DNA of 64,000 nt from Candidatus Nomurabacteria bacterium. GTDB taxonomy: Bacteria > Patescibacteriota > Dojkabacteria > SC72 > JAHDCA01. Where the stretch lies: the NCBI GenBank assembly GCA_020632395.1, contig JACKFQ010000002.1, positions 83,662 through 147,661 of the forward strand. The letters run 5' to 3'. Positions 5,465-23,086 of this stretch are shown piece by piece; position 1 is the first letter of the stretch, and every line of letters begins with the position of its first letter. Both the position numbers and the translations under genes were made by a program. The notes under the pieces were generated by a model, which ran no database searches, was not told where the DNA came from, and saw only the letters and a program-made list of their open reading frames with translations.

Positions 5465-5466
5465 TT

Positions 5467-6403: not shown

Positions 6404-6561
6404 AAAGAAACATTTTCTAAGACTCGAACCCAATTATTAGAGTTATATAGGCATTCTTGCTTATGGAGTGATATTTACCTTACTTTGCGTCATTTCTACG
6501 AACTGCAAGATTAGTCCGCTGTATAAGGCTTTTAAAATGCTGAAGAAAAAGCTGACCTAAC

Positions 6562-6711
6562 TGGTCGGGGAGACAGGACCATCTCGGCAAACATGCCTCG
6601 ATGTATGATGCAGAATAATTCTACTGCATCATAGGTCCCTGCAGTAGGTTCAAGTCCAAATACACCATCCATACAGAGTAAACGACCACCTAACGGTGGT
6701 CATTTACTCTG
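6562..6711. repeat. 150 bp module at the 3' end of tRNA-Pro(CGG); duplicated at 22862-23012
   Basis: Nearly identical to the copy at 22862-23012. Begins with GTCGGGGAGACAGGAC, a 16-nt direct repeat of the tRNA 3' end. Contains the hairpins TGATGCAG/CTGCATCA and GACCACC-TAAC-GGTGGTC. Confidence 0.8.
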
Positions 6712-6785
6712 TCGGGGAGACAGGACTTGAACCTGCGACCTCTGCAACCCGAATGCAGCGTTCTAGCCATCTGAACTACTCCCCG
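6712..6785 (-). tRNA. tRNA-Pro, anticodon CGG
   Basis: Manual cloverleaf: acceptor CGGGGAG/CTCCCCG, D-stem GTTC/GAAC, anticodon arm CTGCA-TTCGGGT-TGCAG, T-arm GCAGG-TTCAAGT-CCTGT, discriminator A. Length 74 nt with no encoded CCA. Confidence 0.85.
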
Positions 6786-6875
6786 AGTACAATATTTCTC
6801 TTAGGTATATCTGGCAAATGAGCCTTATAATAACAACTTTACGAACGTAGTACTATATACGAATTCCACTATCCA

Positions 6876-7208
6876 TCAAGACTTATTTGTTTTTTGTGCC
6901 ACTTTTTCGGGTAGAAGGTTATGGATCGCAAGAAATGGCAATAATGCAAATGACCCTACGAATAGAACCGCTAAAGCAAAAGGATATCTTCGCTTGCTCT
7001 TTTCACTATTTAGGATCCAAAAACAAGATATTGTCGAGAAAACACCTATATCAATGAACATAATGCGAGCGAAAGAGCTTTCCTCCAAAACGGATCTCAT
7101 CGGTATAAAATCGTTCATTAGTTGTGGGTCAAATATGGCATAGATGACCAACAATACCCATACGACGATGAATGTTATCCCTAGTCGTCTCTTCTCAGAT
7201 GAATTCAT
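6876..7208 (-). CDS. Small membrane protein (2-3 TM helices)
   Basis: Hydrophobic 110 aa ORF. Confidence 0.4.
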   Translation of the reverse strand: MNSSEKRRLGITFIVVWVLLVIYAIFDPQLMNDFIPMRSVLEESSFARIMFIDIGVFSTISCFWILNSEKSKRRYPFALAVLFVGSFALLPFLAIHNLLPEKVAQKTNKS

Positions 7209-7297
7209 GATCTTCTTTGTAACTAATAATTAAAATGTTCAACCAGAAAACAGATCAAGCCTATAGTTGCTAAGCTGCTTTACTTTTATAAACCTCT

Positions 7298-8368
7298 CTA
7301 ACTATAAGTTAGCTGGGTAGACAACTGCTTCACCATCTCCACTACAACTGCAGGAGCCACTATACTATATGATTCTACACCATTGTCATCGATAAAAGTC
7401 CACTTCGTATCCTTCCGTACTACCTTACCATCTACTACCTCATAAGATGCACGAGGTGTTAATTCGTAATCATCAAGTATATCAGCTGCGATCTCCACCG
7501 GAACAGAATTTCTCACAAAGATCTTTGGAACGCCATGCAGGTCAAAGATCTTTCGGATCAACTCATCGTCCATCTCTATCCTTTCCCGGATAGTTTCTAT
7601 GCCAAGAGAATCCCCCTCTTTCTCAACCATTCGCTCAGAGCTACATTCAGGGTTATCACAAATCAGGTAAAACTCATCCTTATCAGGGTCATAGCCAGCT
7701 TCCTTTGTGGGGAAAGCCCACAGATTTCTTGATGTATGACATTTGGGGCAGATCCTCCTGTATTTGATGCGTGTATCAATTACTGATTCGGGAACATCCA
7801 GTAGCATGAAAAGATCAGGGTCATCGCGATAATTGATCAGCTCTCTAAAATACAGTGAGTATGTCACCTGATCCATATTTCTAGGAAACCCATCAATGAA
7901 CAGATTTCTCCTACCGGCCTTTTCGATCTCGCGTTTAACGAGAGCGAGAATGAACTCGGTAGGTAGAAGATGTGCGGTAGAGCGATTCATAAAGGCCTCT
8001 ATTGCATCATTTATGGATATAAAACCTCTATAATTAGCTTTCAGATACTCTTCCAGAGCTTGCCTCTCTACTGGATCGTTCTTGATCTCATCAGCAGCCC
8101 TTACGATATCACCTACAGAGAGGTGTTTGATCATATCAGAGCCAAAGATCTCAGCTAAGAGCTTAGTGAAAGTTCCTTTACCTGCTTGTTTCTTTCCAAG
8201 AATGTAGACTATGAACGTATTATCTCTCATATAATCTTTCAGATCGGCAATCTCTTTACCGATCTTATCTTGAAAATATACTTGTCTTTCTGCCGGATCT
8301 GACAGATCATAACTATCACGACCTGATCTAGTCTTTGTGTTTGGCATAGGAAAATCTAACCCCTTCAT
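7298..8368 (-). CDS. Atypical adenylate-kinase-family protein with N- and C-terminal extensions and a zinc lid
   Basis: P-loop GKKQAGKGT, HLSVGDIVRAA, FIDGFPRN, and a zinc lid CPKCH ... CDNPEC. At 356 aa it is longer than the operon adk at 229 aa. Confidence 0.55.
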   Translation of the reverse strand: MKGLDFPMPNTKTRSGRDSYDLSDPAERQVYFQDKIGKEIADLKDYMRDNTFIVYILGKKQAGKGTFTKLLAEIFGSDMIKHLSVGDIVRAADEIKNDPVERQALEEYLKANYRGFISINDAIEAFMNRSTAHLLPTEFILALVKREIEKAGRRNLFIDGFPRNMDQVTYSLYFRELINYRDDPDLFMLLDVPESVIDTRIKYRRICPKCHTSRNLWAFPTKEAGYDPDKDEFYLICDNPECSSERMVEKEGDSLGIETIRERIEMDDELIRKIFDLHGVPKIFVRNSVPVEIAADILDDYELTPRASYEVVDGKVVRKDTKWTFIDDNGVESYSIVAPAVVVEMVKQLSTQLTYS

Positions 8369-8386
8369 TCTGTTATTCGTTAAAGA

Positions 8387-9502
8387 TTATTTACAATTTG
8401 CGATTATCCATTCTTTTATTAGGTCCTTGAATTTCATTAGATCCTCAAAGTCTACCCATTCATCCTTAATATGCGCTGATGAGCATGTTGGCATAGTCAT
8501 AAGCACTGGGATACCCTTTGCACTAAAAAATGCTGCGTCCGAACCACCATGCGATCTGATTATTTCGGGTTGGATACCATGATCATGGGTAATCTCCTGC
8601 CAGATCTTAGTCGGACCTGATCTTGGATCATTATTAACCGCACTACTCCAATGTATAGTGGTTAATAGTAGGTTACGCGATGTAAATTCTTTGGTGACAA
8701 GCTCTTGTATAATTAACGGATCAAACTCGGCAGGTATCCTTATATCAAGAAACATTTCGGCACTATCCGGCACCATATTTATAGCAGATCCACCTTTGAT
8801 CATTCCAATATTTACAGTAGGTATCCAATCATTCGAAGCTGTAGGTGTTCCCCACCTAGTAATAAATTCGTCATGTAGCCAACTGTATGCTTCGGTAAGT
8901 TGATTTATAGCATTTTTGCCCAGCCATGGTCTTGCTCCATGTGCTGCCACTCCCGTTGCAGTACATTTCAGATGCCACAACCCTTTCTCAGCTACACAGA
9001 TCGACCAGTTTGGTCCCGAATCAGGTAGAAATACAACTCCGGGTCGATACCCAACATCATTCAAGAGATACTGCACACCATTATCACTACCGACCTCTTC
9101 ATCAGATGTGAACATAAGTGCGACATCGAGTTTATTTCCTTCTGAAATGAGTTCCTTATATGCATATATCATTGCGACATCTACCCCTTTCATATCACTA
9201 GAACCCCTTGCATAGATCCTCCCATCCTTCTCATAAGGTTCAAATTGATCACTATCCAAGGGAGGTACCACATCAACATGGCCACTCAACATGATCTTCG
9301 GTGTAAGGGTTTTTCGTTGTGAGATAACAATTGAAGGGATATCATTCTTTTCGTACTTTTCAATATTCAGATCAAGATCACTTACTAACTGTTCGACAAA
9401 TTTAATCGCTTCATGGAGTTTTGGAATGTTGTCTGATGTTGACCCGATCTTTAAGAATGATAACAGAGCTTCTTTCATGGTTAAGAGGATATCATATATC
9501 AA
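8387..9502 (-). CDS. M20-family metallopeptidase (ArgE/DapE-like deacylase)
   Basis: SGHVDVVPP and GRIYARGSSDMKG motifs. Size is 371 aa. Confidence 0.75.
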   Translation of the reverse strand: MIYDILLTMKEALLSFLKIGSTSDNIPKLHEAIKFVEQLVSDLDLNIEKYEKNDIPSIVISQRKTLTPKIMLSGHVDVVPPLDSDQFEPYEKDGRIYARGSSDMKGVDVAMIYAYKELISEGNKLDVALMFTSDEEVGSDNGVQYLLNDVGYRPGVVFLPDSGPNWSICVAEKGLWHLKCTATGVAAHGARPWLGKNAINQLTEAYSWLHDEFITRWGTPTASNDWIPTVNIGMIKGGSAINMVPDSAEMFLDIRIPAEFDPLIIQELVTKEFTSRNLLLTTIHWSSAVNNDPRSGPTKIWQEITHDHGIQPEIIRSHGGSDAAFFSAKGIPVLMTMPTCSSAHIKDEWVDFEDLMKFKDLIKEWIIANCK

Positions 9503-9518
9503 ACATTTCTGTATACTT

Positions 9519-9947
9519 CTATCCAGTCTTTACAACATTTGCAATATCCCCGACGCACATCCAAGCGGATGAGATCCCGTAACCCTTCTTATCGATCTCA
9601 AACGGTTTGATCTTCCTCGGTTCTTTCAGGAATACAAGAATACAATATCTTTTTTTCTCATAGTACTCATTATATGTCGTAGTTTTCATACTGATCTCGT
9701 CACCATGGTCATGTGCTATCTTCTCGAACAGCTCTTTGTTTAGATTTTCATACTGTTTTACTCTCAAGACTTCTGCACATGCAGTAACAGGATCACCCGA
9801 ATATTTAAAAAACACCCGGTCACCCTTTTTTATCTTTCCCCAAGGAGCTATACGATTTACATACCATCGGGATTCGATCCTTTTCTTTCTCGAAAGTATA
9901 TCCTCGATCAAACCGGAAGACCTTTTCATGATCGCCACATGATCCAT
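9519..9947 (-). CDS. ASCH/PUA-like domain protein
   Basis: Small beta-rich protein of 142 aa with an ASCH-like N-terminal region. Assignment is tentative. Confidence 0.4.
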   Translation of the reverse strand: MDHVAIMKRSSGLIEDILSRKKRIESRWYVNRIAPWGKIKKGDRVFFKYSGDPVTACAEVLRVKQYENLNKELFEKIAHDHGDEISMKTTTYNEYYEKKRYCILVFLKEPRKIKPFEIDKKGYGISSAWMCVGDIANVVKTG

Positions 9948-10191
9948 AGTTTTGATGAGTTAAAAATTTTATATATAAAAAAACCGAACTTTTGTTACTA
10001 GATCTTGATGCTGGATCGTGATACTAGGTTCTAATACTTGGGCTTGATACTGGGATCTTCTTGCGAGTGAGTTTTTACTTAATGTACTACCTCAAGATCC
10101 CCTCTTACTTAAATGCCTTCGTGAGTACTTTCTGGTATGTCCTATTCGATACTTTAAGAGAGTCCTGCAGAGAGGATCCCACCAATACTTA

Positions 10192-11421
10192 CTAAGATCC
10201 CCTGCTCTTATACCATTCTTTGAGAGTATCAAAGGAGATCCTCTGCCCAAACTCCAATGCACCAAGTTCAAAAAGCTTTAAAGCGATGAAATAGCTAATG
10301 ATCAACTGCAATATCAGAGCAACTATCGATGCAACAATTTCGAATGAAGATAAGACTCCTATACCATTCCTAAAGAGCAATATCAAAGGAGAAGAAATCG
10401 GTACATAACTTAAAATTAGAGCAAGGGTTCCATCAGGATCCGCTATCAAGAAACCTATCATATACAAAGGAAGTATCGCCAACATTATAAATACAGAAGA
10501 AAAACTCTGCGATTCTTTGAGGGTTGGCATTGCCGCTCCCACACCAACCATGATATTAGCTAGTATCACAAAGCCAAGAAATGCATATAAAAATGAAGGT
10601 ATGGCCTGTACCGGGTCGATACTTATCTGACTTACATCTATAGGTAATGAGGCATCCGAGATCTTTAACCCCATAACCCCTAAAGTTATCAGAAGTGTGA
10701 TCTGAGTCACAACAATACCTATCAAGCCTAGCAATTTCCCTTTTATAAGATCATCTGAGCGAATAGAGGTGAGTATGATCTCCATCATTCTCGACTCTTT
10801 TTCTTCTGCCACACTTGCCAGGAGATAACTCGTGCCAGATGTTATCATCAAAAAATATATTACAAATGCTCCGATCGGAACTATGTAATCTTCAACTTTT
10901 TCCTCTACCTTTTCGCCATTTTCATATACATTCAGCTCTACTCCGGGAGGTGTTTCTAAGATCAGATACTGCGTCTGGTCAAGGGTCGAAAGCACAGAGC
11001 TACGTAATAAAGCTACTGCTGTGCTATTGTACTGATTATTCTCTATCACATTGAGATTGATCCTGTAGATCTCGATCTTTCCTTTGCCTTCCAGAAGCGA
11101 CTGAGGATAATAAAAGAATACTGAGGCACCACCATCCAAAACGATCTCTTTCCCCTCCTCGATCGTAGAGACGAACTCCACACCTTCTCCTTGTACTGCT
11201 TCGGTATCAATTAGACCAGTTTCATCAAGTACCAATAATACATTATCCTTGTCGAATTTCTGGATCTCTTCGAATTTCTGCTGTGCCGTTTCTGCTGAGA
11301 ACGTATTTAGTAACGAGACAATAACTATCAAAATTGGCAATAACAGGGTAGAAAGCCAAAAACTCTTCTTCCTTACTACAGTTATGTATTCTCTTTTAGC
11401 GACAAGTAGTAGTTTGTTCAT
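10192..11421 (-). CDS. ABC-2 type exporter permease
   Basis: N-terminal TM helix, a large extracytoplasmic loop and a C-terminal cluster of TM helices. Immediately downstream of an ABC ATPase. Confidence 0.65.
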   Translation of the reverse strand: MNKLLLVAKREYITVVRKKSFWLSTLLLPILIVIVSLLNTFSAETAQQKFEEIQKFDKDNVLLVLDETGLIDTEAVQGEGVEFVSTIEEGKEIVLDGGASVFFYYPQSLLEGKGKIEIYRINLNVIENNQYNSTAVALLRSSVLSTLDQTQYLILETPPGVELNVYENGEKVEEKVEDYIVPIGAFVIYFLMITSGTSYLLASVAEEKESRMMEIILTSIRSDDLIKGKLLGLIGIVVTQITLLITLGVMGLKISDASLPIDVSQISIDPVQAIPSFLYAFLGFVILANIMVGVGAAMPTLKESQSFSSVFIMLAILPLYMIGFLIADPDGTLALILSYVPISSPLILLFRNGIGVLSSFEIVASIVALILQLIISYFIALKLFELGALEFGQRISFDTLKEWYKSRGS

Positions 11422-11422
11422 T

Positions 11423-12322
11423 TTAGTTATTGCCTTTCATTATATCTATGAAGATCTGCTCAATAGTAGGTAAATATCGCTCAAACGATCTGATCTTCAC
11501 CCCTTCATTTAATAGTTTCTTTAAAACTTCATTATCCTCTGCTGGTTTTACTGTTCTTACTAAATACCCTTCTCTAAAAGGGGTTGTACTGATACCGTCA
11601 ATCTTAGGTATAGTTGTACCTTCAGGGATCACGATGTAGTACGATCCATCTGCAGCTTCTTCTCTGACCTTGTTTACACTCCCGTCCAGCGCAATACGAC
11701 CGTTATGCAGTATGCCAACTTTGTTCGCGACTTTTTCGACCTCTTCTAATATGTGAGTACTAAATAGTACGGTTGTGCCATTATCTCGTAGCTCCATGAT
11801 CATATCTATCAGAAGTTTTCTATTTACAGGATCAAGACCTTTTGTAGGCTCATCTAGTATAAGAAGTTTTGGTTGGTGGATGAGAGCTAAACCAAGCTGA
11901 ACCTTCTGTTGTTGCCCAGATGATAGTTTTCTGATCTCTTGCGACCCCTTTTCTGCAATTCCCACACTTTCAAGATACTCTCTCGATGCTGTTGTAGCAT
12001 CCTTCTTGCTCATACCTTTCAAAGTAGCGTGATACACTAGGGCATCTAATGTTCTCATACCCAAATACAGTCCTCTTTCTTCAGGAAGATAGCCTAAGAT
12101 ATGTGCTTGTTTCTCTGTATATCTTTGGCCATAAACAAGGAGCTCTCCTTGATAGATAGTATAGATGTTCAATAAGCATCTGATCGTTGTGGTTTTACCT
12201 GATCCGTTAGCACCTATCAGGGCATAAACTTCACCAGAGTCTATCTGAAGATCCATTTGTTTGATAACTTCTTTATTTCCGAAAGATTTATGGAATTTTG
12301 AAATATCGACTGCATGGTTCAC
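11423..12322 (-). CDS. ABC transporter ATP-binding protein
   Basis: Walker A GANGSGKTT, signature LSSGQQQKV, Walker B LLILDEP. Confidence 0.85.
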   Translation of the reverse strand: MNHAVDISKFHKSFGNKEVIKQMDLQIDSGEVYALIGANGSGKTTTIRCLLNIYTIYQGELLVYGQRYTEKQAHILGYLPEERGLYLGMRTLDALVYHATLKGMSKKDATTASREYLESVGIAEKGSQEIRKLSSGQQQKVQLGLALIHQPKLLILDEPTKGLDPVNRKLLIDMIMELRDNGTTVLFSTHILEEVEKVANKVGILHNGRIALDGSVNKVREEAADGSYYIVIPEGTTIPKIDGISTTPFREGYLVRTVKPAEDNEVLKKLLNEGVKIRSFERYLPTIEQIFIDIMKGNN

Positions 12323-12533
12323 GATAATATTGGTCTGTAATACAAGATATTGGGTCTAATTATGATTATAATACAAAATGATGTGGGTGTCAGAACTTTC
12401 TATCGGCATACAAGTATGTATATCTCCGAGCATTTAGCTTCATTTATAAATTCACAAAAAAGTGCTGATCGTAAACTTGGATTGAGTAGGCAAAGGTGAT
12501 AAATTAGTATAAACATTCTCAATTATTCCAACT

Positions 12534-15500
12534 ATGGTGTCCAAAAGTAAACAGAAAAAACGATCAAAAAACAAACAGTTCGAACTAAGGATGATACTTT
12601 TGGGGATTGTATCACTCACTCTGTTTCTAGTTTCCTTACTCATATATCTCTATAAAAGTGAGTCGATAATTGATAAATACAACATCATTGCAAGTGATTT
12701 CTCTGACAGTTCCTTCTCAATATCCTTCAGCACATTACAACCTAAGTATTTTCAAGCAGTCCTTTTAACCGAAGGAGAGGGGATCTCAAAACTGATATCT
12801 TCAAAAGCTACATCAGAGACTGAAGATATCAGGATCATCGAAAGAGTTTCTGATACTTTCAAACCCGGATATTATACCCATTATTACACATTCAAAAAAA
12901 TAGATCCTAATGAGAGCTATCGGGTCGCATTAAAGGACTCTACGGGGAGATTATGGAAGACTGATAAAGTTATCTTCCCAGAGGATTGGGAGGAGAGACA
13001 TAAGGTTCAGAAAGGTGACTCTGATCCATTGCCACTTTCAGGTTCTGTATCCTATGAAGGTGAATTTGTTCAAGGTGCATTGGTTTATGCAACATATAAT
13101 GGCATTACGATCTCAACGATCACAGCTGAAGAAGGTAAGTTCGTTTTAGAAGCTGCAAAATTTGGTTTACACGGATCTGACTTTGAAGACACACTGTCAA
13201 TACCTATAAACGTAGACCTATCATATCTAGGTGGCTACGACACCTCACTCACATACACCACAGAAGAACTTAGTAGTAGGACAGAAAAAGATCTAGGACT
13301 CATCTGGAGTACAAGAAGTATGGACTGGGGATCAGATATCATGCCGAAGAAAAAAAGTGAAAATCTTCTTGTCTCAGAGGTCTATGCCTGCTCTGCCGGA
13401 CAAACAAGGATCTGTCGCTCTGATACGAGTCGTGGGAGAGCTTGTTTACCAGGTAGTACCTGTGCATGGGAGGTCGATGAAGAAGGTTACCCTATCATCT
13501 GTTCATGCACATCACAAAGCTCAGGTTCCTCTGGTACTGCTGGAAATTCGACATCAACATCAGCTCCTGACATGTCTAACGCCGGATGGGAGAATGGTGT
13601 ACCGGAGGTTGGAGGGAGTACACCTCTTGATAGTCAGCTATGTGAATATAAATGTTCGGTAGCATGCTCGTCAGAGCACTCTGATGGAAATTGGTATGGT
13701 CAATGTGGTAACCCCGACAAAAGCGATGCAGGTATAGACACTTGCACTTGTATAAAGCTCGAGGGAGAGATGAGTAGCTATACAACACCAGCATATGACC
13801 CTAATCAGTTCGGTTCTGGGCAAGGAGGTTTCAATTGCCCAGCTGGTCAAGATATCTATGTGTCAAAGCCCGGGGTGATTTTTTGTGTACCTGCAGATGC
13901 ACCTAAGGTAGGTTACAAGGTCGACCCATCTTTAGTACAGATATTCACAGCGATCAAAGAGGCGATCGAGTCTGTCGGGGTCAAGGCTGGACTGATCACG
14001 GGAGGTTTTGGAGGAGGAGGAGGATCATACACAACTGACAAAAGTGGAAGACCCGTCATAAGGTTAGATTGGAATGAGCCGAATGTTGCATTAACAGCTG
14101 CTCATGAAGCGATGCACCAGGCTGGTGATCAGGCAGCCTCTTGTTATAGGAGTTTACCCGTGATACATAAAGAATTTTGTGCAGATTACTGTTCCTTGAG
14201 CACACCCTTAGAGATTGGTTATGCATTTAAGTATAAAGGATCCTATAGACTTCCAATGGAGATCGCTTCAGAAGAGTGGTATGGAGGTGAGACAGATCTG
14301 GATGCGATAAGAAATAGTCAACGATATAAGAATGACTGCCTAGATCCTGACGGTATGTGCCGAGGAGGAATATGCGACATTGTGAATAAGGTGAATATAA
14401 CAGATGTTGTAGGGAGACGTTACGCACAAACCCATAATGAATACAGTGACGGTGTGAGGGGTTTGGAATATGTGGGGTCTGGAATAAAGAGGAATTGGAA
14501 TCTACCAGATGATGATACTGTAGGAAGCGATGATCCTGCGATCTCTGAAACAGATACTTTCGATCCTGATCGTGATGAACCTGCATCAAATGAAGCTGTT
14601 TCTAATACAGACACCCCGGTTTGTACCTATGAAGAGGTGGGAGAGATCATTTATGAATTTAAGAATGCATACTATTACGAGATACTCAGTAGTATGCCAC
14701 CAGGTACAGAAGTCGATACAGAGGACCTGTTAGACTGGTTGTTAGAAAAGATCACAGATTACTATGGTTATGATCAGAACAAAGCGCAGTGCATAATTGA
14801 TCATCTTGACCAGTACCCAAATCTACTGCATTTTGATTCGTTACTTGTTTGGGATGACACAAAAGATGCTTATATAGTGACCACAAACAGTATGGGTTTT
14901 GCTGATTTTGCAGGATTGATAGAGAATGGATTTGATTTGCTTGATCCTTCAGATCTAGACGAGCAAACAAGTTATTCCTTGCCCGCTATACCGAGAGTAG
15001 ATACCTCTGGACTTTATGAGATCTATTCAGCTTTTCCAATCGATTACGATTCCGAGACAGGATCATTTTTGATCAGTTACGATCCGGATGTAGAAACTCA
15101 ATCGGAAAGTCTGTTGCAGAAAGCTTATGCAAGCGAACCGACTGTTCATCAGATCGACCCTTCCAATGCAAAGATGTTTCTATTTACGGATACAAATGAG
15201 AATCAAAAATACGATCCAGAGGGAGAGCAAATCGAGAAATTTGCAGGTATACCTATCATAATAAAACGGGCGCCCGAACAAACCCAACATAGCTATCAAT
15301 TGAACAAGGGTTTGAACATGATAGCGTTTCCTTTCGAAGCTGAAAGTTTTACAGCAAAATCACTATTAGATAAAATAAACACACAAGGTGGAGATGCAAC
15401 AGAGATATCCACGATACGAGATGGTACCTGGCAGGTTTATAAGAAATCCAAATTTGTAGATTACACATATAAGGACTTCCCTATTGAGATCGGAAAAGGA

Positions 15501-15794
15501 TATTTCGTATTTACTGAACGGGATTCTACTCTACATCTGTGGGGCAATGAAGTTGACTTTACATATGAGATCTTCTCTGGATATGGGAGTGTGGGTTTCT
15601 CGGATACTCTGATCGAACAGTATAAGACCGCATATGGATTACTCCTCGCTGATAGTCAGATATATGAGATCACAAAATATAAGGATGGAAAATTCTATTC
15701 CGTTATCAGATCCGATGGTGACATATTTGGGTATGATTATGACCTCTCAAAATATGAAGGGTATTTCATTAGAAAATTACGATCTTCAAACTGA
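12534..15794 (+). CDS. Giant secreted or membrane-anchored Cys-rich surface protein (1086 aa)
   Basis: N-terminal TM helix LRMILLGIVSLTLFLVSLLIYLY, Cys-rich blocks, a Gly run and an acidic C-terminal half. No recognisable catalytic motif. Confidence 0.6.
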   Translation: MVSKSKQKKRSKNKQFELRMILLGIVSLTLFLVSLLIYLYKSESIIDKYNIIASDFSDSSFSISFSTLQPKYFQAVLLTEGEGISKLISSKATSETEDIRIIERVSDTFKPGYYTHYYTFKKIDPNESYRVALKDSTGRLWKTDKVIFPEDWEERHKVQKGDSDPLPLSGSVSYEGEFVQGALVYATYNGITISTITAEEGKFVLEAAKFGLHGSDFEDTLSIPINVDLSYLGGYDTSLTYTTEELSSRTEKDLGLIWSTRSMDWGSDIMPKKKSENLLVSEVYACSAGQTRICRSDTSRGRACLPGSTCAWEVDEEGYPIICSCTSQSSGSSGTAGNSTSTSAPDMSNAGWENGVPEVGGSTPLDSQLCEYKCSVACSSEHSDGNWYGQCGNPDKSDAGIDTCTCIKLEGEMSSYTTPAYDPNQFGSGQGGFNCPAGQDIYVSKPGVIFCVPADAPKVGYKVDPSLVQIFTAIKEAIESVGVKAGLITGGFGGGGGSYTTDKSGRPVIRLDWNEPNVALTAAHEAMHQAGDQAASCYRSLPVIHKEFCADYCSLSTPLEIGYAFKYKGSYRLPMEIASEEWYGGETDLDAIRNSQRYKNDCLDPDGMCRGGICDIVNKVNITDVVGRRYAQTHNEYSDGVRGLEYVGSGIKRNWNLPDDDTVGSDDPAISETDTFDPDRDEPASNEAVSNTDTPVCTYEEVGEIIYEFKNAYYYEILSSMPPGTEVDTEDLLDWLLEKITDYYGYDQNKAQCIIDHLDQYPNLLHFDSLLVWDDTKDAYIVTTNSMGFADFAGLIENGFDLLDPSDLDEQTSYSLPAIPRVDTSGLYEIYSAFPIDYDSETGSFLISYDPDVETQSESLLQKAYASEPTVHQIDPSNAKMFLFTDTNENQKYDPEGEQIEKFAGIPIIIKRAPEQTQHSYQLNKGLNMIAFPFEAESFTAKSLLDKINTQGGDATEISTIRDGTWQVYKKSKFVDYTYKDFPIEIGKGYFVFTERDSTLHLWGNEVDFTYEIFSGYGSVGFSDTLIEQYKTAYGLLLADSQIYEITKYKDGKFYSVIRSDGDIFGYDYDLSKYEGYFIRKLRSSN

Positions 15795-15822
15795 TTGGAG
15801 AAACTGATCAGTAAAGCAAATT

Positions 15823-17499
15823 CTACAGATCAACCAGAGAGTTGTATGTCACATTAGTAAGATTTGGTGTGCATCCACTATTCAGAAATAAACCTGTTGT
15901 GGTACCGAAGAAATCAGTATTACTGATCGTTGGATTGCATGTAACATTTGTTATATAGCCACCGTACGTCGTCCCTACCCCTGTTGCTGTAAAATCAGAA
16001 CCCGATATTGAGGGGGAAGATGTTTCGACATATAAAGCATAAGAGGTCGGAGACGAGTCGATATTCTCAATATTTACAGATGTATTTGTGACTGATACTG
16101 GGGTCTTGTTTATTCTCACACCATATACCGTTCCATCTGATGATTTATTTATATTTATAGTTGAATCTGTAATTGATGAGGAGTTTATGATCCCATAAAA
16201 TCCATACGTCGTAGTTCCACTCCCAGTTACTGACAAATTAGCAACTACATTATCTATCAACATAGTATTTCCAGATGATACCGGATAGAACAATCCTACT
16301 GATTTGGTCGCAGAAGTGTAATTTATCACACTATCATAGATCCGGGTCTGTGCTGCCGAATTCGTATATATGATCTTATCAATAGTATTATTCGAAGTAG
16401 CATTATTTGTAATTGTGATATCTGAATCATACATACTGAAATTCGAAGCCCAGAAGGTATTCACAATACCAACATCGTCTCTTGTGCCAGAGCCACTTTT
16501 TACTTCAAGAGCAATATTCATATTATAAAATCTACCTCCTCCTGCATTATGAGTTATCGCATATAATCCATCTCCTGCAGGAGGTTGCTTAGCGTTTACG
16601 GTTACATTATTAGCTATCATAAAGCTACCTGTCCTAGTCAAAAGTGGGTATATAGGTCCAGTATTTGTATCGATCTCGATATTCACATTCTTTACATAAC
16701 AAGGATTTGCAGCACGACGAGAATATGCATCGATTGGTGCCCACCAGGATATGTTTCCCGACCGTTTTATCGTTAGATCACGTATACTTGAGGAGTTACT
16801 CATATATGCATTATTTAACAATACGGTCTTTCCGACACCAGATCCTCTAACTTCGACATATTCCTTTATATCGATACTTTCATTATATGTGCCAGGCATA
16901 ACAAAGATAGTGTAACTCTTGGTTGCTGAGCTATCAGTGATCGAATTCATTGCAGAAGTGATTGTAGTATAGGTTTGTCCTGATCCGACAACAATAATAT
17001 CTTCATCATTCACAGTGATAGGAGTTTGATCAGTTGGGATGAAGATCCCATCGATCATTGCAGTTCGTTGGTTAGAACCTTTTACCTTCACCTCATAACC
17101 AGTCCCTAAGCTATCATCCTCAACATCTGGGGATATTGGAATATCGACTACATAATCAGGGATCAAGTCGTCTAAACTGATCATGCCTCTGGATTCACAT
17201 TCGGATCTTGGCACACCACTCTTACAAACTTCTTTGTATATTGAGCTAACCCCCTCAGGATAACCGCTATTATCGATCAGATACTGGTCTATCGCACTAT
17301 ACAGAGCATTTAATTCATTCTTAGTCTCTGAGACCTTTGCGGACTCGTACATCTTTGTTGGATTTATTGCAATAGCAACAACAGCACCCAATAATGCTAT
17401 CAAACCGACAACGACCAAGATCTCGATAAAAGTAAATGCTGGATATGTTTTCGAATGCTTTAAAAAATATATATTATTCATATAATCTTGTTGTCTCAC
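15823..17499 (-). CDS. Type IV pilin-like protein with a large Ser/Thr/Asn-rich C-terminal domain (558 aa)
   Basis: Prepilin signature PA|FTFIEILVVVGLIALLGAVVAIAI with Glu at +5. The long C-terminal region is rich in NxT/S sites. Confidence 0.7.
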   Translation of the reverse strand: MRQQDYMNNIYFLKHSKTYPAFTFIEILVVVGLIALLGAVVAIAINPTKMYESAKVSETKNELNALYSAIDQYLIDNSGYPEGVSSIYKEVCKSGVPRSECESRGMISLDDLIPDYVVDIPISPDVEDDSLGTGYEVKVKGSNQRTAMIDGIFIPTDQTPITVNDEDIIVVGSGQTYTTITSAMNSITDSSATKSYTIFVMPGTYNESIDIKEYVEVRGSGVGKTVLLNNAYMSNSSSIRDLTIKRSGNISWWAPIDAYSRRAANPCYVKNVNIEIDTNTGPIYPLLTRTGSFMIANNVTVNAKQPPAGDGLYAITHNAGGGRFYNMNIALEVKSGSGTRDDVGIVNTFWASNFSMYDSDITITNNATSNNTIDKIIYTNSAAQTRIYDSVINYTSATKSVGLFYPVSSGNTMLIDNVVANLSVTGSGTTTYGFYGIINSSSITDSTININKSSDGTVYGVRINKTPVSVTNTSVNIENIDSSPTSYALYVETSSPSISGSDFTATGVGTTYGGYITNVTCNPTISNTDFFGTTTGLFLNSGCTPNLTNVTYNSLVDL

Positions 17500-17676
17500 T
17501 GTACAAAGGCAGCAGATAAATGAACTATATCAGTACAATTTTAAAGGAATGATCAAATAATTACAAAAGTTTTTCATAGAGCCTACTTGCAAAGCGCGAT
17601 ACTAACTGCTATCAAAGGATATCTTTCGTATTAGGTAAGTTGGGATCAGGGATTAAATTATTCTTAATACAACTGT

Positions 17677-18354
17677 ATGAACGAACCGCAAAATAACAAT
17701 CGCATAGTACTGATCACAGGTACAAGTCGAGGAATTGGACTTGCCACAGCAAACACATTTTTACAGAAGGGGTATACAGTTCTGGGGACATCAACAAGTG
17801 GTAGATCCCCTATCTCTCATGATCATTTTAAAGCATATGAGCTTGATCTGTCGTCTCAAGATTCAATAGATTCTCTAACTAAAAAACTATTAGATGAAGG
17901 AAAACAGATCGATCATCTAATAAACAATGCTGCAATAATGATAGATCAGCAAGATGGGAAAATCGACATGAAAAGATTGCGGGATACTGTTGAAGTGAAT
18001 TTATACGGTACAATATCATTAACAGAAGGATCGATCCCTATGCTTCGTACAGGAGGCTCGATCATCAATATCTCGTCAGAATTAGCCTCATTATCTCAAA
18101 GGATGACTAATAGAGCATACTCTTACAGGATCTCAAAAACAGCTTTGAATATGTATACTTTGACATTGAGTCAGAGGCTGGAGGAGAAAGGGATCAGAGT
18201 ATATAGCTTTGCTCCGGGATGGGTTAAAACGGACATGGGTGGTGAGAATGCCCTCAGAGATCCAGAAGAACCTGCCTTAGAGATCTTCAGACTCAGTACA
18301 TCCGAACAGAGGTCCGGGTATTTCTATGAAGTAGATAGTGTACGAGATTGGTAA
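17677..18354 (+). CDS. Short-chain dehydrogenase/reductase (SDR)
   Basis: TGTSRGIGLATA nucleotide-binding motif and YRISKTALN (YxxxK). Confidence 0.8.
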   Translation: MNEPQNNNRIVLITGTSRGIGLATANTFLQKGYTVLGTSTSGRSPISHDHFKAYELDLSSQDSIDSLTKKLLDEGKQIDHLINNAAIMIDQQDGKIDMKRLRDTVEVNLYGTISLTEGSIPMLRTGGSIINISSELASLSQRMTNRAYSYRISKTALNMYTLTLSQRLEEKGIRVYSFAPGWVKTDMGGENALRDPEEPALEIFRLSTSEQRSGYFYEVDSVRDW

Positions 18355-18466
18355 AAGATGTGTGATACTATCAAACTGTTGACCCGATCGATCACCCAAG
18401 ATAACAAATATCTTTCAAAGCAGTGACCAGATCTTTAGGTGGTCTATCTTCGACATTTAAAACTGA

Positions 18467-18503
18467 AACCCCCTCTTCAGATATTCTCTGTTTAGAGGGG
18501 GTT
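18467..18503. terminator. Bidirectional rho-independent terminator between convergent genes
   Basis: Perfect 10-bp stem AACCCCCTCT/AGAGGGGGTT with a 17-nt loop and T-rich flanks on both strands. Confidence 0.5.
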
Positions 18504-18523
18504 ATTTCAGCTTTCGGTAACAA

Positions 18524-19771
18524 TTAGTCGTCAATCTCTACAAAAAGAACCTGTCCAGCTGAGTATATTGACATACCAACACCAAAGTCGGTCTTAACTA
18601 GATCCAAACCTAATTTGGTATCTCTACTATTGGTGTTATATACTAACTCAGGGGAAACCCAATTGATCCCATCAGTGGAACGAGCTCTGACCAACTTACC
18701 AACTGAATTCAGGTAAGTTTGCCAGTAGGCTTCAATAACCCCTGACTCACGTACATAGAGTTCTACTGCACCTTGATAGTTATCAGGTCCACCTTCGATC
18801 ACTGTAAGATTTTGTGTCCCATAAGGATCGATCCTAAGTAGTTGTATTTCAGAAGAAGAATTTGCAGCATCGACAGTTGCCCAACCATATAGTCTATCTC
18901 CATTTGGAAGGAATATCTGATCAACATCAACAGAATAATCACCATGAAAACCAGAATAGATCTTGTTTATCACTCGACCACTCTTCGAATAGACATCTGT
19001 TATCCTCTCAGTATTTCCAGAATCAAGCGTTGTCCATGTCGTAACAATTCCGGTTTTCTTCGAGTACTCAACATCTACAGAGATCTCATCTATGAAAGGT
19101 GATGTTTCCTTTGACACTCTCTTCAAGTCTTTCCATTCACCTGTCAGAGGATCGAAACGAGTTTCATAGATCCTAAAATTCCCTGTATTACCTTCATACA
19201 AGGAAAAAGCTGCAAAAAATGTGCAAGAATCAGTAGAAGAAACTGCAGTATTTCTGAAACGAGGAGGTCCTGCGAGAAGCATATCCTCTAATTGAATTTC
19301 CTCACCACCTGTAACCTTAGTAGCTGGCAGGTTTAATCTCGTTATGCTCCATGTCTTTCCGAGATCCTTTGATTCCGACAGATAAGCAAAAAAACTGTTG
19401 TGTACAGTTGAATACATACTTGATGCAACTACAAGGGTATCCTTACATATATGTAAAGATGGGTACTGACTATAGTTCTCATCTGTTGAAAGAAGAACAT
19501 TCTGACCCCACTCTGTACTTCCAGCTTTCCTAGTGCTGTAATACAACTTACTTGGATTCTCAAAATCTCTGGAATCCTTCCAGACCGCATGTAGATTTCC
19601 ATACTGATCCTGTACAACTTCAGCATGAGAGTCCACCATGTAGTCTGTAGCTGGTGGGGTATCATTGATCACGGAAACTCTGACTCCTTCGGACGAATCT
19701 CCAGCATACAGAGGTGATACCGTAGAAAGCACCACTGCTACAAGGGAGAGAAATGAAATAAATTTTCGCAT
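18524..19771 (-). CDS. Secreted BNR/Asp-box repeat protein (sialidase-like beta-propeller)
   Basis: Signal peptide MRKFISFLSLVAVVLSTVSPLYA. Asp-box motifs SKDLGKTWS and STDGINWVS. Confidence 0.55.
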   Translation of the reverse strand: MRKFISFLSLVAVVLSTVSPLYAGDSSEGVRVSVINDTPPATDYMVDSHAEVVQDQYGNLHAVWKDSRDFENPSKLYYSTRKAGSTEWGQNVLLSTDENYSQYPSLHICKDTLVVASSMYSTVHNSFFAYLSESKDLGKTWSITRLNLPATKVTGGEEIQLEDMLLAGPPRFRNTAVSSTDSCTFFAAFSLYEGNTGNFRIYETRFDPLTGEWKDLKRVSKETSPFIDEISVDVEYSKKTGIVTTWTTLDSGNTERITDVYSKSGRVINKIYSGFHGDYSVDVDQIFLPNGDRLYGWATVDAANSSSEIQLLRIDPYGTQNLTVIEGGPDNYQGAVELYVRESGVIEAYWQTYLNSVGKLVRARSTDGINWVSPELVYNTNSRDTKLGLDLVKTDFGVGMSIYSAGQVLFVEIDD

Positions 19772-19901
19772 ATGCGAATAGTAAAAATTTAGATAGGATA
19801 ATAAACGAATATCTATGATTAAAGTAACATACAGGGGTGCAATACCTTTCTCGATGATAACCTATAGTGTACAATTCTGATCGAATTAATGATATTAAGT
19901 T

Positions 19902-22103
19902 ATGAACACTGAGCAATTCGTTCCAGGTGAATATGGTGTATCTATTTCCGACAGGGTTCTCGGTCGGTTAATTGAGGTATTTGGATCTGCGGCTTTAACT
20001 GGGTCTCAAGATTCTCAATGGCATATTTACCCTAATTCACACGAAGCATTAGATGGTATATCACATACGATAACATATGAGCAGATACAGGCATTCTCAC
20101 CTGCCATGCTTCTCGTGCTGTTACTGATAATAGAAGAATCTGATGAAGAGTCTTATCTTGCTGCTATGGAAAATCAAGCATATAGGCCAACATATACCAG
20201 AACAGCTGAGACTGATGAAGAATTGAATCCTGATTTGGATGAAGTACCGCAGAACCATGCCAGAGGTCTCATTCAAGATCTTTTAGCTTTGAAACTACGT
20301 GACACTGACATGGTCCCTGGATTTGCAAATGATGTTGCGAGATATCTCTCAACAGACCCTGCTTTATCAGAAGCATCCATTAGAAGATCATTCTGGGAAA
20401 TACAGGCTGCTTTCTATCAGATTCTGGACGATGATCGGGAACTATTTGAGAAAAACCTTAGATGTTTCTTGGATCGATCATATGTGATCGATCCCAATTG
20501 GGGTCTAGTCGTTGATACCTTCCTCAACTCAAAACTCGAATTTGAAAAGATCCCACCTGAAGCATTCGAAGCTAAAGAAATAACTATTTTTTCAAGAAAC
20601 CAGGATATTTTTGATTATGTTATCGATTACCTACTCCATCATATAAGGACCCAAAGTCTAACCAGAAAACAAGTAGACAATATAGTATCCTTACTACTAC
20701 ACAATTACATGGCTGGTAATGATGTGATGATTGCTTTTGATATGCTCATACGTCGGAGAGGAGCAAATTTTGATATCCTTGTTTTCGCTAAAAAGAATCC
20801 AACAGTCTCAAAAAAGATACTAGAACACATATTTCATTTACTTTTAACAGAACCAGACACAAATTATCCTGTTGATGTTCAAAAGACCTTGGTAGAGGGA
20901 TGGATACTTCTAGTTAGATTACCTGTTTTAAAAATATGTCAAATACCTTTTGCTAAAGAAATCTTAGAAAAATATGCGTCTAGTCTAAAGATACCCCCTA
21001 GTGTAGCAGTCGGATTGCTTACTAAACGGCAAGATACTCAACAGGTGTTAGTCTCTTCAGACTCTGAGGAAGAATGCCAAGAATCTAGGAGAATACCAGC
21101 AACACATTATCTGCCTACTGAAATTACTACCAGATTAATCTCACATTTTCAGTGGGAAGAGCTTTCAACTGTAGGAATAGATCTTGATAAACTCTCGCTC
21201 GTGCAAGTTTTCCAATTAATTTTCTGGTTTTGGACAAATGGATATGATTTCGACATATATTATGGTATTCCCGCCCAAAACCCAGATCGATCTATCCCAA
21301 TTTTTGTAAAAAACCTGTCGAAACATCTGGAGCATCTATTGAAAAGATCAAATGCTGGGGAGCTTGATTCATTTTGTCAGGTTCTTGCAGAAAAGTTGAA
21401 CCATGGTGAACCTACAGCAGGTATCAATCCATACATATACGCAGACACCGTCTCAAGATTTCTTGTAGAGTACATAGAACCAGAGCTGAGACTTACGTTG
21501 TTGAAATCATTACAATGTGTAGATTACCCAACCGCCATAGTTTTAGCCCACAACCTTAACATGGAACAAGAGCTATACCAAAACCCTCCTGACCAGAAAA
21601 TCCCTGTAATAAACGCGATCCGTTCTGATGCAGAGTTCTCACTCAACGTTCTAAGGACGATTATCGACAATAACCATGAGTATCCAAACACTCCATCTCA
21701 TGTCTACTTGTTACTGCTACGAAAATCACTTTTTCCCCGAGGAAACAAACTTTTTACAATGACGGATAAGACACTCTTACGGAAAATATTGGGAAAAGTA
21801 GAACGTTCTGATCGAAACCAAATTCTCGATGAGCTAATAGAAAGAATATTTTGGACATATTCCCAACAAACCCAAGACCTGTTAAGGCTTTCGGCTTTCC
21901 TCGAGCTAGCTACGCCATCAGAGGTATATGCTTTTTATAGAAAACTTTATTTCATAGGTCAGGAGGATCCTAGAATGAGAGAACATGTTCTTAAACATAC
22001 GAAATTATTGATGGGTACGTTACCTATAGCAAATAAGATTGCTATGGCGTCTAAGTCGCTCCCGCGACCTTACGGTCGGGGTTTCGGCTCTTCATTCAAA
22101 TGA
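19902..22103 (+). CDS. Large hypothetical protein (733 aa), probably cytoplasmic and helical
   Basis: Long ORF with coding-like composition and no motif I recognise. Confidence 0.45.
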   Translation: MNTEQFVPGEYGVSISDRVLGRLIEVFGSAALTGSQDSQWHIYPNSHEALDGISHTITYEQIQAFSPAMLLVLLLIIEESDEESYLAAMENQAYRPTYTRTAETDEELNPDLDEVPQNHARGLIQDLLALKLRDTDMVPGFANDVARYLSTDPALSEASIRRSFWEIQAAFYQILDDDRELFEKNLRCFLDRSYVIDPNWGLVVDTFLNSKLEFEKIPPEAFEAKEITIFSRNQDIFDYVIDYLLHHIRTQSLTRKQVDNIVSLLLHNYMAGNDVMIAFDMLIRRRGANFDILVFAKKNPTVSKKILEHIFHLLLTEPDTNYPVDVQKTLVEGWILLVRLPVLKICQIPFAKEILEKYASSLKIPPSVAVGLLTKRQDTQQVLVSSDSEEECQESRRIPATHYLPTEITTRLISHFQWEELSTVGIDLDKLSLVQVFQLIFWFWTNGYDFDIYYGIPAQNPDRSIPIFVKNLSKHLEHLLKRSNAGELDSFCQVLAEKLNHGEPTAGINPYIYADTVSRFLVEYIEPELRLTLLKSLQCVDYPTAIVLAHNLNMEQELYQNPPDQKIPVINAIRSDAEFSLNVLRTIIDNNHEYPNTPSHVYLLLLRKSLFPRGNKLFTMTDKTLLRKILGKVERSDRNQILDELIERIFWTYSQQTQDLLRLSAFLELATPSEVYAFYRKLYFIGQEDPRMREHVLKHTKLLMGTLPIANKIAMASKSLPRPYGRGFGSSFK

Positions 22104-22269
22104 AGGATATTCATACTGAAAAGTGTTCCGGAGTAAATGTACAGATGCCTTGTGTATAGTGGTAATTCGTGTCAACAATTCTTTATCAGGATGCAGTTCA
22201 TTATCAAATACAATTTGTGTCTCAGTTAAGAAATAGAGTTTACTTCAAAGAATAAACTTTCACAAAGAC

Positions 22270-22707
22270 TTAAGTATGATCAACAAGATCCAACCTCATA
22301 GTATAGAACGACTCACCTGGTGGGTAATCAGCGATCTCACCGATGATATAGAACCCGAAATTCATGTAAAATTCTAAAGCTTGGAAACTGTATGTTTCTA
22401 GGAAAATATACGAGCAGTTTTTCGATCGTGCAATTTTTATTGCACAGTCCAATAATTTACTTCCTATACCAGATCTTCTGTGGCGATCTTCAACGTATAG
22501 GTTCTCGATCTTCATACATTTCCAATAGATCTGTGCATGTAGACCAGCGATCAGTTCTCGTTCTGAATGCTCTTTAATATTTATGTACTGGATCGATCCA
22601 TCTCTTCTGTATTCATGATGATATTTAGAGTTAACATTGTTGTAAGTTCGGATCTTATTCTTTAACCACTCTTCAAAATCTTGTTGTTGAGTATAAGTTA
22701 CTTTCAA
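22270..22707 (-). CDS. GNAT-family N-acetyltransferase
   Basis: Motif A HRRSGIGSKLLDCAI. Size is 145 aa. Confidence 0.7.
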   Translation of the reverse strand: MKVTYTQQQDFEEWLKNKIRTYNNVNSKYHHEYRRDGSIQYINIKEHSERELIAGLHAQIYWKCMKIENLYVEDRHRRSGIGSKLLDCAIKIARSKNCSYIFLETYSFQALEFYMNFGFYIIGEIADYPPGESFYTMRLDLVDHT

Positions 22708-22861
22708 ACTGATGATGTTTAGGTTAATTTGTTAATTATATTGATCTATAAATACTTTAGCGATGCTATATGAACTTTAGTTAGCCGCTTGATCCGGGCC
22801 TGCTATGCAGATCATTATCTGCGCACGATCTCCTTAGCAGCCCTTACGGACCGTCTATCGT

Positions 22862-23012
22862 CTGGTCGGGGAGACAGGACCATCTCGGCAAATATGCCTC
22901 GATGTATGATGCAGAATAATTCTACTGCATCATAGGTCCCTGCAGCAGGTTCAAGTCCAAATACACCATCCATACAAAGTAAACGACCACCTAACGGTGG
23001 TCATTTACTCTG
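22862..23012. repeat. 150 bp module at the 3' end of tRNA-Pro(GGG); second copy
   Basis: Near-identical to 6562-6711, including the 16-nt direct repeat of the tRNA 3' end and both hairpins. Confidence 0.8.
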
Positions 23013-23086
23013 TCGGGGAGACAGGACTTGAACCTGCGACCTCTTGCACCCCATGCAAGCGCTCTAGCCATCTGAACTACTCCCCG
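23013..23086 (-). tRNA. tRNA-Pro, anticodon GGG
   Basis: Identical to the 6712-6785 tRNA except in the anticodon arm: CTTGC-ATGGGGT-GCAAG here versus CTGCA-TTCGGGT-TGCAG there, and one D-stem base. Confidence 0.85.

Follow-up and report, generated by a model that had tools for sequence, protein, structure and literature searches.

Two tRNA-Pro genes in a 64,000-nt stretch of contig JACKFQ010000002.1 from Candidatus Nomurabacteria bacterium, the whole of which is referred to here as the window, are each followed by nearly the same 147-bp insertion, which we name E1. In an initial annotation, the two loci, tRNA-Pro(CGG) and tRNA-Pro(GGG), had been read as a recent duplication of one tRNA gene with its 3' flank, combined with a swap of the anticodon arm and enclosing 16 kb of accessory DNA that recombination could excise. 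Our analysis corrects this attractive reading of tRNA duplication and isoacceptor remodelling: it is very likely that the repeat arose by insertion into two pre-existing isoacceptor genes and not by duplication of a locus. The evidence consists of exact insertion boundaries, empty sites in other strains, presence and absence of E1 that varies independently at the two loci, and other inserts at the same site, all of which were observed in assembled sequence. The tRNA-Pro 3' end is an integration hot spot in this species, and in a reduced genome (~1.1 Mb) of the Candidate Phyla Radiation (CPR) the tRNA-Pro 3' ends serve as a strain-variable landing pad. The window is bacterial and, judged by the assemblies closest to it, comes from a CPR/Patescibacteria organism; identical proteins are listed at NCBI under Candidatus Nomurabacteria or Candidatus Dojkabacteria.

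A repeat search of the window reported a single 236-nt direct repeat between positions 6561-6796 and 22862-23097 (93% identity, spacing 16,301 bp). ARAGORN and Rfam (tRNA threshold 29 bits) both confirmed the two isoacceptors, CGG and GGG, proposed by the initial annotation. In pairwise alignment, the 3' flanks of ~150 bp show 3 substitutions between the loci, bearing out their reported near-identity, and the tRNA genes themselves differ in the anticodon arm (CTGCA-TTCGGGT-TGCAG vs CTTGC-ATGGGGT-GCAAG) and in one D-stem base (GAAC vs GAGC). The internal 16-nt repeat noted earlier is also real and exact. It reads GTCGGGGAGACAGGAC on the + strand, which is the complement of the final 16 nt of tRNA-Pro (T loop through discriminator plus one C), and has four exact copies in the 64 kb (6564-6579, 6711-6726, 22865-22880 and 23012-23027), compared with a chance expectation for the window of 0.2 matches with up to 3 mismatches. 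Read in the tRNA sense, each locus consists of the tRNA body, GTCCTGTCTCCCCGAC (core1), 131 bp, a second GTCCTGTCTCCCCGAC (core2) and CA-G, followed by unrelated DNA. Identity between the loci starts no more than 2 nt from the tRNA 5' end and stops 3 nt past core2.

The two cores differ in what follows them. At both loci core1 is the end of the functional tRNA-Pro and continues into AGAG without an encoded CCA; tRNA-Pro(CGG), for example, reads ...CCCCGA-CAG after its discriminator. Core2, on the other hand, is followed at both loci by the remainder of the CCA (…CCCCG-A-CCA-G). Since the CCA lies after core2 and not after core1, and since CCA is encoded by tRNA-Glu, the sole other tRNA in the window, as well as by many relatives' tRNA-Pro genes, core2 looks like the original 3' end of each tRNA-Pro, pushed off by a 147-bp insertion (the 131 bp plus one 16-nt core). 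The interior of E1 contains no open reading frame (ORF). In the tRNA sense it forms three hairpins, the first with a stem of 16 bp directly behind the tRNA and the others with stems of 10 bp and 4+4 bp, with fold z-scores of -7.0 as RNA and -8.1 as DNA, and it holds GGACTTGAACCT, found with blastn-short as an exact 12-nt complement of the T arm. No Rfam family matched E1. We rejected the idea that E1 is a decayed tandem tRNA copy, as Rfam gave no tRNA signal at E <= 1, ARAGORN found none and no convincing alignment was obtained.

Contigs of the same species, recovered through exact-protein look-ups of flanking genes in NCBI, ENA and Logan assemblies, contain both the occupied and the empty form of each site (Table 1). 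In L183, part of a metagenome-assembled genome (MAG), tRNA-Pro(GGG) has the same sequence as in the window and runs as …GTCCTGTCTCCCCGACCA straight on into CCA. In L196, tRNA-Pro(CGG) runs as ...GTCCTGTCTCCCCGACCA, i.e., as …GACCA and then TATAGGACG…, directly into the downstream DNA. A precise unoccupied site is thus present for both loci in near-identical strains, with flanks 98.5-99.9% identical. The window carries E1 at both CGG and GGG, the JAGQLN MAG at CGG only and the sample ERZ27248703 at GGG only. Independent assemblies also carry both copies of the insertion: copy A was found in L193 (100% identical), and copy B in L005 and L185. Occupancy is independent at the two loci, both tRNA genes pre-date E1, and the flank was not inherited with a duplicated tRNA. 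Likewise, presence/absence polymorphism among strains with 98.5-100% identical flanks indicates that E1 is evolutionarily recent, so the recency attributed to the flank identity holds for the insertion.

These data bear directly on the duplication model, in which a recent segmental duplication of tRNA-Pro and its 150-bp flank would have been followed by remodelling of the anticodon arm, with the 16 kb in between as excisable cargo. Its appeal lies in the 93% identity over 236 nt with the differences concentrated in the anticodon arm. Copies made in this way should be inherited together, but every strain has both tRNA loci, and the flank block is there or missing at one locus independently of the other; in the sister strains L183 (GGG) and L196 (CGG), tRNAs of identical sequence run directly into CCA without the flank, which contradicts duplication of tRNA and flank as a unit. 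Furthermore, the repeat reaches exactly from the 5' end of the tRNA to the displaced tRNA end, and DNA outside these limits is not duplicated.

The similarity of the tRNA bodies is not specific to these two genes either. A scan of JGI metagenomes with the 29-nt variable-loop/T-arm/acceptor sequence returned 78 loci, ~25 of which are tRNA-Pro(UGG) genes that match the window genes exactly in the acceptor, D and T arms; very different organisms with high GC also have the same 29-mer in their tRNA-Pro genes. Between tRNA-Pro(CGG) of the window and the tRNA-Pro(UGG) of the clade (e.g., L111, L118 and L121) there are 4 differences, all within the anticodon arm: one anticodon-stem pair, position 34 and position 38. 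Such a small distance makes anticodon shifts conceivable in the clade, and to that extent it fits the duplication model. However, since identical bodies with differing anticodon arms are the norm among the tRNA-Pro isoacceptors here, an arm swap is not required, and body identity among isoacceptors is a clade-wide property rather than a sign of recent duplication. Taking these points together with the conservation of the 16-kb interval described below, we consider the duplication model highly improbable. For annotation in general, a near-identical tRNA "flank" that ends in a second tRNA 3' end points to serial integration and not to segmental duplication.

The interval between the two loci was proposed to be accessory cargo. 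We rejected it as an island: Pfam and NCBIfam searches found no recombinase, transposase or phage gene in 6786-22861, its GC content (0.36-0.45 per kb) resembles that of the rest of the window, and it is conserved. The same gene order is kept in JAGQLN (98.5-100% identity) and in more than 20 Logan contigs from many samples. The interval and both tRNA-Pro loci were found in every strain examined; relatives with a single tRNA-Pro locus or without the interval were not among them. Recombination between the two repeats is physically possible, as had been suggested, the longest perfect tract common to both being ~67 bp, but no deletion allele of the 16-kb interval was seen in the strains examined, and in strains with a single E1 the repeat is reduced to the tRNA bodies. 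We regard the interval as ordinary chromosome between two target genes, outside the mobile structure. The variable DNA lies elsewhere, directly downstream of each tRNA and in window 1-6563, which holds an integrase gene and a gene array.

Table 1. Features of the window, same-species contigs and alleles of the tRNA-Pro(GGG) locus.
Feature	Location	Strand	Remarks
Tyrosine recombinase, XerA/IntI-like, 270 aa	5591-6403	+	Pfam Phage_integrase 6e-45; convergent with tRNA-Pro(CGG)
Large serine recombinase (LSR) relic, 3' end of gene	6465-6560	+	~95 bp, fused to displaced tRNA-Pro(CGG) end
Core2 of copy A + CCA + G	6561-6579 (core2 6564-6579)	-	Displaced tRNA-Pro(CGG) 3' end
E1 interior, copy A	6580-6710	-	131 bp; missing from strain L196
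tRNA-Pro(CGG)	6711-6785	-	ARAGORN; Rfam RF00005 63.8 bits (start 6711/6712)
Interval between the loci	6786-22861		ADK-like protein, M20 peptidase, ASCH protein, ABC-2 transporter pair, 1086-aa protein; further genes: pilin-like 558-aa protein, SDR, 415-aa and 733-aa proteins, GNAT
Core2 of copy B + CCA + G	22862-22880 (core2 22865-22880)	-	Displaced tRNA-Pro(GGG) 3' end
E1 interior, copy B	22881-23011	-	131 bp; 97.7% identical to copy A (3 mismatches); missing from strain L183
tRNA-Pro(GGG)	23012-23086	-	ARAGORN; Rfam 58.0 bits (start 23012/23013)
RNase P class A RNA	48836-49312	-	142.6 bits
Contig L183	GCA_020429305.1, JAGQLN010000006.1		Matches window 25324-23012 at 99.9% and 22870-16264 at 98.5%; E1 absent at GGG
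Contig L193	End of same contig as L183		Matches window 17208-6262 at 100%; tRNA-Pro(CGG) + E1 + core2 + integrase start
Contig L196	ENA ERZ27248703		Matches window 11101-6711 at 99.7%; no E1 at CGG
Contig L185	ERZ27248703, same sample as L196		E1 at tRNA-Pro(GGG)
Contig L005	JACKFP010000001.1, 1.09 Mb		E1 at tRNA-Pro(GGG)
GGG allele: E1 only	Window
GGG allele: E1 + 1,460-bp insert (GATase + DUF2000)	L005 (10996-12455), L184, L185		Inside core2, within 8-bp repeat CCCGACCA
GGG allele: no E1, 3.5-kb insert (75-aa ORF, C5 DNA methylase, HATPase_c_3 protein)	L183 2314-5837; L186-L191		At tRNA's own CCCGACCA

E1 is one of several inserts at the same nucleotides. The GGG locus was found in three allelic states: E1 only, E1 with a 1.46-kb insert, and a 3.5-kb insert without E1. 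The 8-bp repeat CCCGACCA that brackets the larger inserts corresponds to window 22863-22870, at the displaced tRNA-Pro(GGG) end, and the alignments with the window break at 22863/22870 for L005 and at 23012/22870 for L183. In L005 the order is tRNA, E1, core2, cargo insert and degenerate core. The 3.5-kb methylase allele is present in at least 7 contigs from different samples (L183 and the six contigs L186-L191). Neither cargo insert contains a recombinase gene. They have in common ~100 bp at the right end and ~230 bp at the left end (73% identical), and each terminates in a degenerate mimic of the tRNA end, GATCCTCCCGACCAG; the cargo inserts form a family of non-autonomous elements whose cargo is exchangeable. 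At least 3 alternative inserts thus occupy the same nucleotides in strains otherwise ~99% identical, among them a defence-like DNA methylase/ATPase pair. As a side observation, the pairing of the methylase with the HATPase_c_3 protein looks restriction/defence-like.

A trace of a further element was found at the CGG locus, where the relic of an LSR gene adjoins core2. The relic aligned by tblastn with the LSR of L179 in two colinear pieces (52% over 27 aa and 67% over 12 aa, E = 0.06) and keeps the peptide ISPLYKA; at the DNA level, window 6465-6580 gave a local score of 53-54 with the C-terminus of the L179 LSR, compared with 19 +/- 3 for shuffles. The same stretch is conserved beside the integrase in L023 and L025. 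It marks the old attL (left attachment site) of an LSR-type, tRNA-Pro-specific element. In L179 the LSR is intact (495 aa, 6731-8218, + strand, with Resolvase, Recombinase and Zn_ribbon_recom domains) and convergent with a tRNA-Pro(UGG) gene at ~8200-8270 (- strand). Its ORF crosses into the tRNA-Pro complement, where the last ~8 codons and the stop are located (…CGRGDRT and stop, the TGA of the T loop coming from GGACTTGAACC), such that the recombinase gene overlaps its own attachment site. L196 carries a truncated copy of the same LSR beside its E1-free tRNA-Pro(CGG), split by a transposase ORF (5161-5766). From inspection of the sequence, we take this transposase to be IS1595/ISXO2-like. 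The isoacceptor adjoining the LSR-type element in L121, L179 and L182 is the UGG gene. All isoacceptors with this 3' end are probably targets, i.e., at least two and probably three.

Two further candidates for relatedness among these elements were rejected. Homology between the left ends of the cargo inserts and the LSR relic was not supported, as the local scores lie within the shuffle range and only the short motif CCGTTCGTA recurs. Similarly, a 4.2-kb phage-like block in L023 was considered as a larger relative of E1, but its displaced core GTCCAGTACCCCCGACCA mismatches the end of the neighbouring tRNA-Pro(UGG).

How E1 came to be placed is less certain than the fact of insertion. We infer that a site-specific recombinase, rather than short-homology recombination, was responsible, and the assignment to a particular recombinase is tentative. 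Overall, it seems reasonably probable that an integrase-type recombinase put E1 in place and that E1 is a decayed or miniature element resembling the cis-mobilizable elements (CIMEs) discussed below. In this scenario tRNA-Pro(CGG) and tRNA-Pro(GGG) would be long-standing isoacceptors with the same last 16 or more nt, each of which would have received the same E1 independently. Recombination would take place between the tRNA 3' end (attB) and an element carrying a copy of that end (attP). E1 would enter at the T loop and give the tRNA a new, CCA-less 3' end, and the original CCA-bearing end would move 147 bp downstream, a pattern characteristic of integrase-type recombination. E1 itself would then be no more than a pair of att ends that have lost everything in between, and it would be mobilized in trans or copied from one to the other of two identical target sites. 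We count in support of this scenario the recombinases tied to tRNA-Pro 3' ends, namely the L179 LSR, the LSR relic at core2 and the XerA/IntI-like integrase 160 bp away.

Ectopic gene conversion, or short-homology recombination, is the most serious alternative for this step, although we judge it unlikely. According to it, E1 arose once at one tRNA-Pro, by whatever route, and homologous recombination then copied it to the second gene, with the identical T arm and acceptor serving as homology on one side and the displaced end of 16-19 nt on the opposite side. The two genes do have 31 identical nt in common from the variable loop to the discriminator, to which the displaced end adds 19 nt, GTCCTGTCTCCCCGACCAG; in addition, no dedicated recombinase of E1 was identified, and E1 is confined to one species in the collections searched. 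However, the distal homology amounts to only 16-19 nt, and in an unoccupied target the same stretch must also serve as the proximal homology. Moreover, site specificity is evident for the other inserts at these nucleotides, which have conserved ends, differing cargo and a crossover repeat of 8 bp.

Several points weigh against insertion by a recombinase, or against insertion itself. E1 codes for nothing, and comparison with the LSR element ends, the cargo inserts, the cassette array and the integrase platform of the window gave no significant similarity. No parent element was identified, though the parent may be unsampled. Searches of IMG/VR with four patterns (interior hairpin, right junction, left hairpin and gapped core-core) gave 0 matches for E1 elsewhere, as did a search for its right junction in JGI metagenomes, and among ~190 fetched loci (blastn-short, nhmmer) E1 was found only as the same-species copy in L005. 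Regarding the empty sites, a 16-bp direct repeat 147 bp apart can also be lost by replication slippage, in which case the "empty" alleles could be secondary deletions. Finally, MAG and metagenome contigs may mix strains; each junction, though, lies within one contig. A synteny search via DUF3048 across genome contigs confirmed no relative.

The hairpins of E1 raise the alternative that selection has kept its copies similar because it functions as a structured 3' trailer or as a small RNA, which may modulate tRNA-Pro maturation. Refolding of the precursor could come about through the 12-nt anti-T-arm segment together with the second acceptor strand; in a variant of this proposal, the first hairpin could be a terminator or a processing signal that takes the place of the encoded CCA. 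Very high stability is predicted for the structure (z = -7.0 for the trailer and -9.2 for the tRNA with its trailer), the minimum-energy precursor fold pairs the T arm with the anti-T-arm 12-mer and the 5' acceptor strand with the distal copy, and among the three substitutions that separate the copies is one that converts a G-C pair of hairpin 1 into a G-U pair. On the other side, the trailer has no Rfam match, it exists in just two near-identical copies, too few to show covariation, hairpin-rich DNA is also typical of att regions, and sister strains manage without E1 at the one or the other locus. On the tRNA strand hairpin 1 lacks a following U tract, and we rejected it as a terminator for that reason. 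We consider a selected trailer function quite improbable.

More speculatively, E1 could be a miniature integrative element that has no genes yet is active, is specific for tRNA-Pro and hops between isoacceptors with a recombinase supplied in trans; we regard this as doubtful. The recombinase in trans would be either a tRNA-Pro-specific LSR or the neighbouring XerA/IntI-like integrase. Each hop would replace the CCA-encoding end by a CCA-less, hairpin-capped end, and the anti-T-arm 12-mer of the transcript together with the spare acceptor strand could alter tRNA-Pro maturation. If active, E1 would be the integrase-world counterpart of a miniature inverted-repeat transposable element (MITE), with a direct effect on a tRNA.

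E1 has features of several known kinds of element. When classical tRNA islands and prophages integrate at the 3' end, sequence of the element restores a functional tRNA, and a partial copy of the tRNA remains at the far end. E1 likewise regenerates the tRNA end and leaves a partial copy: an exact 16-nt repeat flanks 131 bp at both loci, and both genes score as full tRNAs. It differs in that no integrase lies within E1 and that the regenerated end drops the encoded CCA. Because it comprises 131 bp with no ORF and no integrase of its own, we do not class it as an autonomous island, an integrative and mobilizable element (IME) or a prophage. The integrases of such elements reportedly fall into sublocation classes, a scheme of Williams in 2002; the sublocations also come up in PMC3146451. 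Like MITEs, E1 is small, strongly structured and without genes, occurs in near-identical copies and is present in some strains but not in others. However, it lacks terminal inverted repeats, its repeat is a specific tRNA end where a MITE would have an arbitrary target duplication, and only two copies were seen, in the same kind of target. We rejected its identity as a MITE, since the ends AGAGTAAATG... and ...GCCGAGATG are not inverted repeats and both copies are flanked by the same tRNA end.

Streptococcal CIMEs and tandem accretion at tRNA genes have been described for ICESt1-related elements in Streptococcus thermophilus and for tandems of IMEs and ICEs (integrative and conjugative elements) at tRNA-Lys in S. 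agalactiae (PMC5704250). Like CIMEs, E1 is bounded by attL/attR-type repeats of the tRNA 3' end and carries no recombinase, integrase or transfer genes, and, as in CIME arrays, further elements enter the displaced att copy and build tandems (PMC5704250); L005, L184 and L185 have the 1.46-kb insert in the core2 of E1. Unlike CIMEs, E1 has only 131 bp between its repeats, with no gene or gene remnant and no known parent ICE or IME. Its host is a CPR bacterium in which conjugative elements are not documented here, and excision or mobilization of E1 is putative.

The genomic islands (GIs) specific for ssrA in Dehalococcoides are another close parallel. These islands are arranged in tandem downstream of ssrA, a tRNA-like gene, with a ~20-bp direct repeat of the 3' end of the gene and an insertion point in the T loop (McMurdie et al. 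2011, PMC3146451). An LSR gene adjoins attL on the reverse strand, content is variable among strains, and many islands lack an integration module and have been interpreted as cis-mobilizable (PMC3146451). The tRNA-Pro loci match them closely: an LSR lies at attL, insertion is into the T loop, the 3' end is repeated, and there are tandems and module-less islands (PMC3146451). In contrast to the single-copy ssrA, the target is tRNA-Pro with at least 2 and probably 3 isoacceptors, the repeat is 16 nt, the LSR is present only as a relic in the window, and E1 is far smaller than any ssrA-GI. A literature search on integrons, integrases or tRNA islands in CPR/Patescibacteria found nothing relevant. 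E1 is a small, clean case of something already known, namely serial integration at the 3' end of a tRNA that leaves an att-only remnant, in a lineage where it has been little described. With its 131 bp it represents a minimal att-bounded remnant and, if mobile, an unusually small non-autonomous integrative element.

The 270-aa integrase beside the CGG locus is the only intact recombinase gene near either tRNA-Pro in the window and lies 160 bp from core2. It scored 232.8 bits with NF040815 "recomb_XerA_Arch" (cutoff 220) and 212.8 bits with TIGR02249, which is below the cutoff of 265. Of its two best matches among solved structures, XerA of P. abyssi (4a8e) aligns with it end to end. VchIntIA (2a3v), in comparison, aligns in two pieces, with 22 residues between them in the integrase (175-196) vs 65 in VchIntIA (179-243), so ~43 residues of the IntI-specific insert are missing, and the protein lacks the additional domain of IntI. 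Homologues are numbered in thousands, 55-85% identical, across CPR phyla and beyond. At 26 of 80 homologue loci from GTDB genomes (L025-L104), a convergent tRNA was found within 450 bp downstream of the integrase gene, at distances of 6-430 bp, most commonly tRNA-Ser, but also Leu, Ala, Pro, Trp, Ile, Met and Lys. The tRNA 3' ends beside the homologues are not repeated within the 6-kb flanks, except for an approximate (3-mismatch) repeat at tRNA-Ser in L095, and no further copy of GTCGGGGAGACAGGAC that could be the far end of an integrase island is present in the window, even with 3 mismatches. In view of both results, insertion of the integrase platform by its own integrase is at most putative. 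Four independent Logan contigs with an identical integrase (L001-L004) all end 6 nt after its stop (window 6409), which suggests strain variation or a repeat starting right downstream of the integrase.

Seven small, unrelated genes on the - strand, including a peptidase S51, a cytidine deaminase and a methyltransferase, diverge from the integrase gene. Six of the spacers each contain one site of the form AATTTCAT-ATAACGTT-...ATAYGCGAAGTTTTGC (at 672, 1232, 1847, 2514, 3608 and 4364), and in two cases the site continues into a repeat of 88 nt (2558-2645 and 4407-4494), an attC-like imperfect palindrome. A motif related to the ATAACGTT-type spacer sites, GCGTATAACTCGTTACTATACGAAGTGTTTTCGC, is located ~90 bp upstream of the integrase start (window 5468-5505). 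It is conserved at the DNA level across phyla, in L022, L023, L025 and ~15 other loci, including an Altiarchaeales MAG, with integrases that are only 55-65% identical, and many MAG contigs end 100-250 bp upstream of the integrase. GCGTATAACTCGTTACTATACGAAGTGTTTTCGC has the appearance of an attI-like recombination site that adjoins a hypervariable array. The GC content of window 1-6563 is 0.31-0.40, compared with ~0.36-0.45 elsewhere. Window 1-6403 may be described as an integron-like cassette array, though not a canonical integron, since its integrase lacks the IntI-specific insert. An integron-like array with a XerA-type recombinase may merit separate study.

A short motif, (C)CGTTCGTA / TACGAA, recurs around these loci, often as inverted or repeated pairs, although its enrichment in the window is not significant. 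In the window it is found at 6839-6863 (- strand) upstream of tRNA-Pro(CGG), at 38941-38975 upstream of tRNA-Glu and at 6496-6503 in the LSR relic. It is also present at ~12440 in L005, downstream of tRNA-Pro in L121, L179 and L196, close to either end of the cargo inserts and within the cassette sites. Elsewhere in the window, the match to RNase P class A RNA spans 477 nt vs the 367 positions of the model, indicating that this RNA has sizeable insertions.

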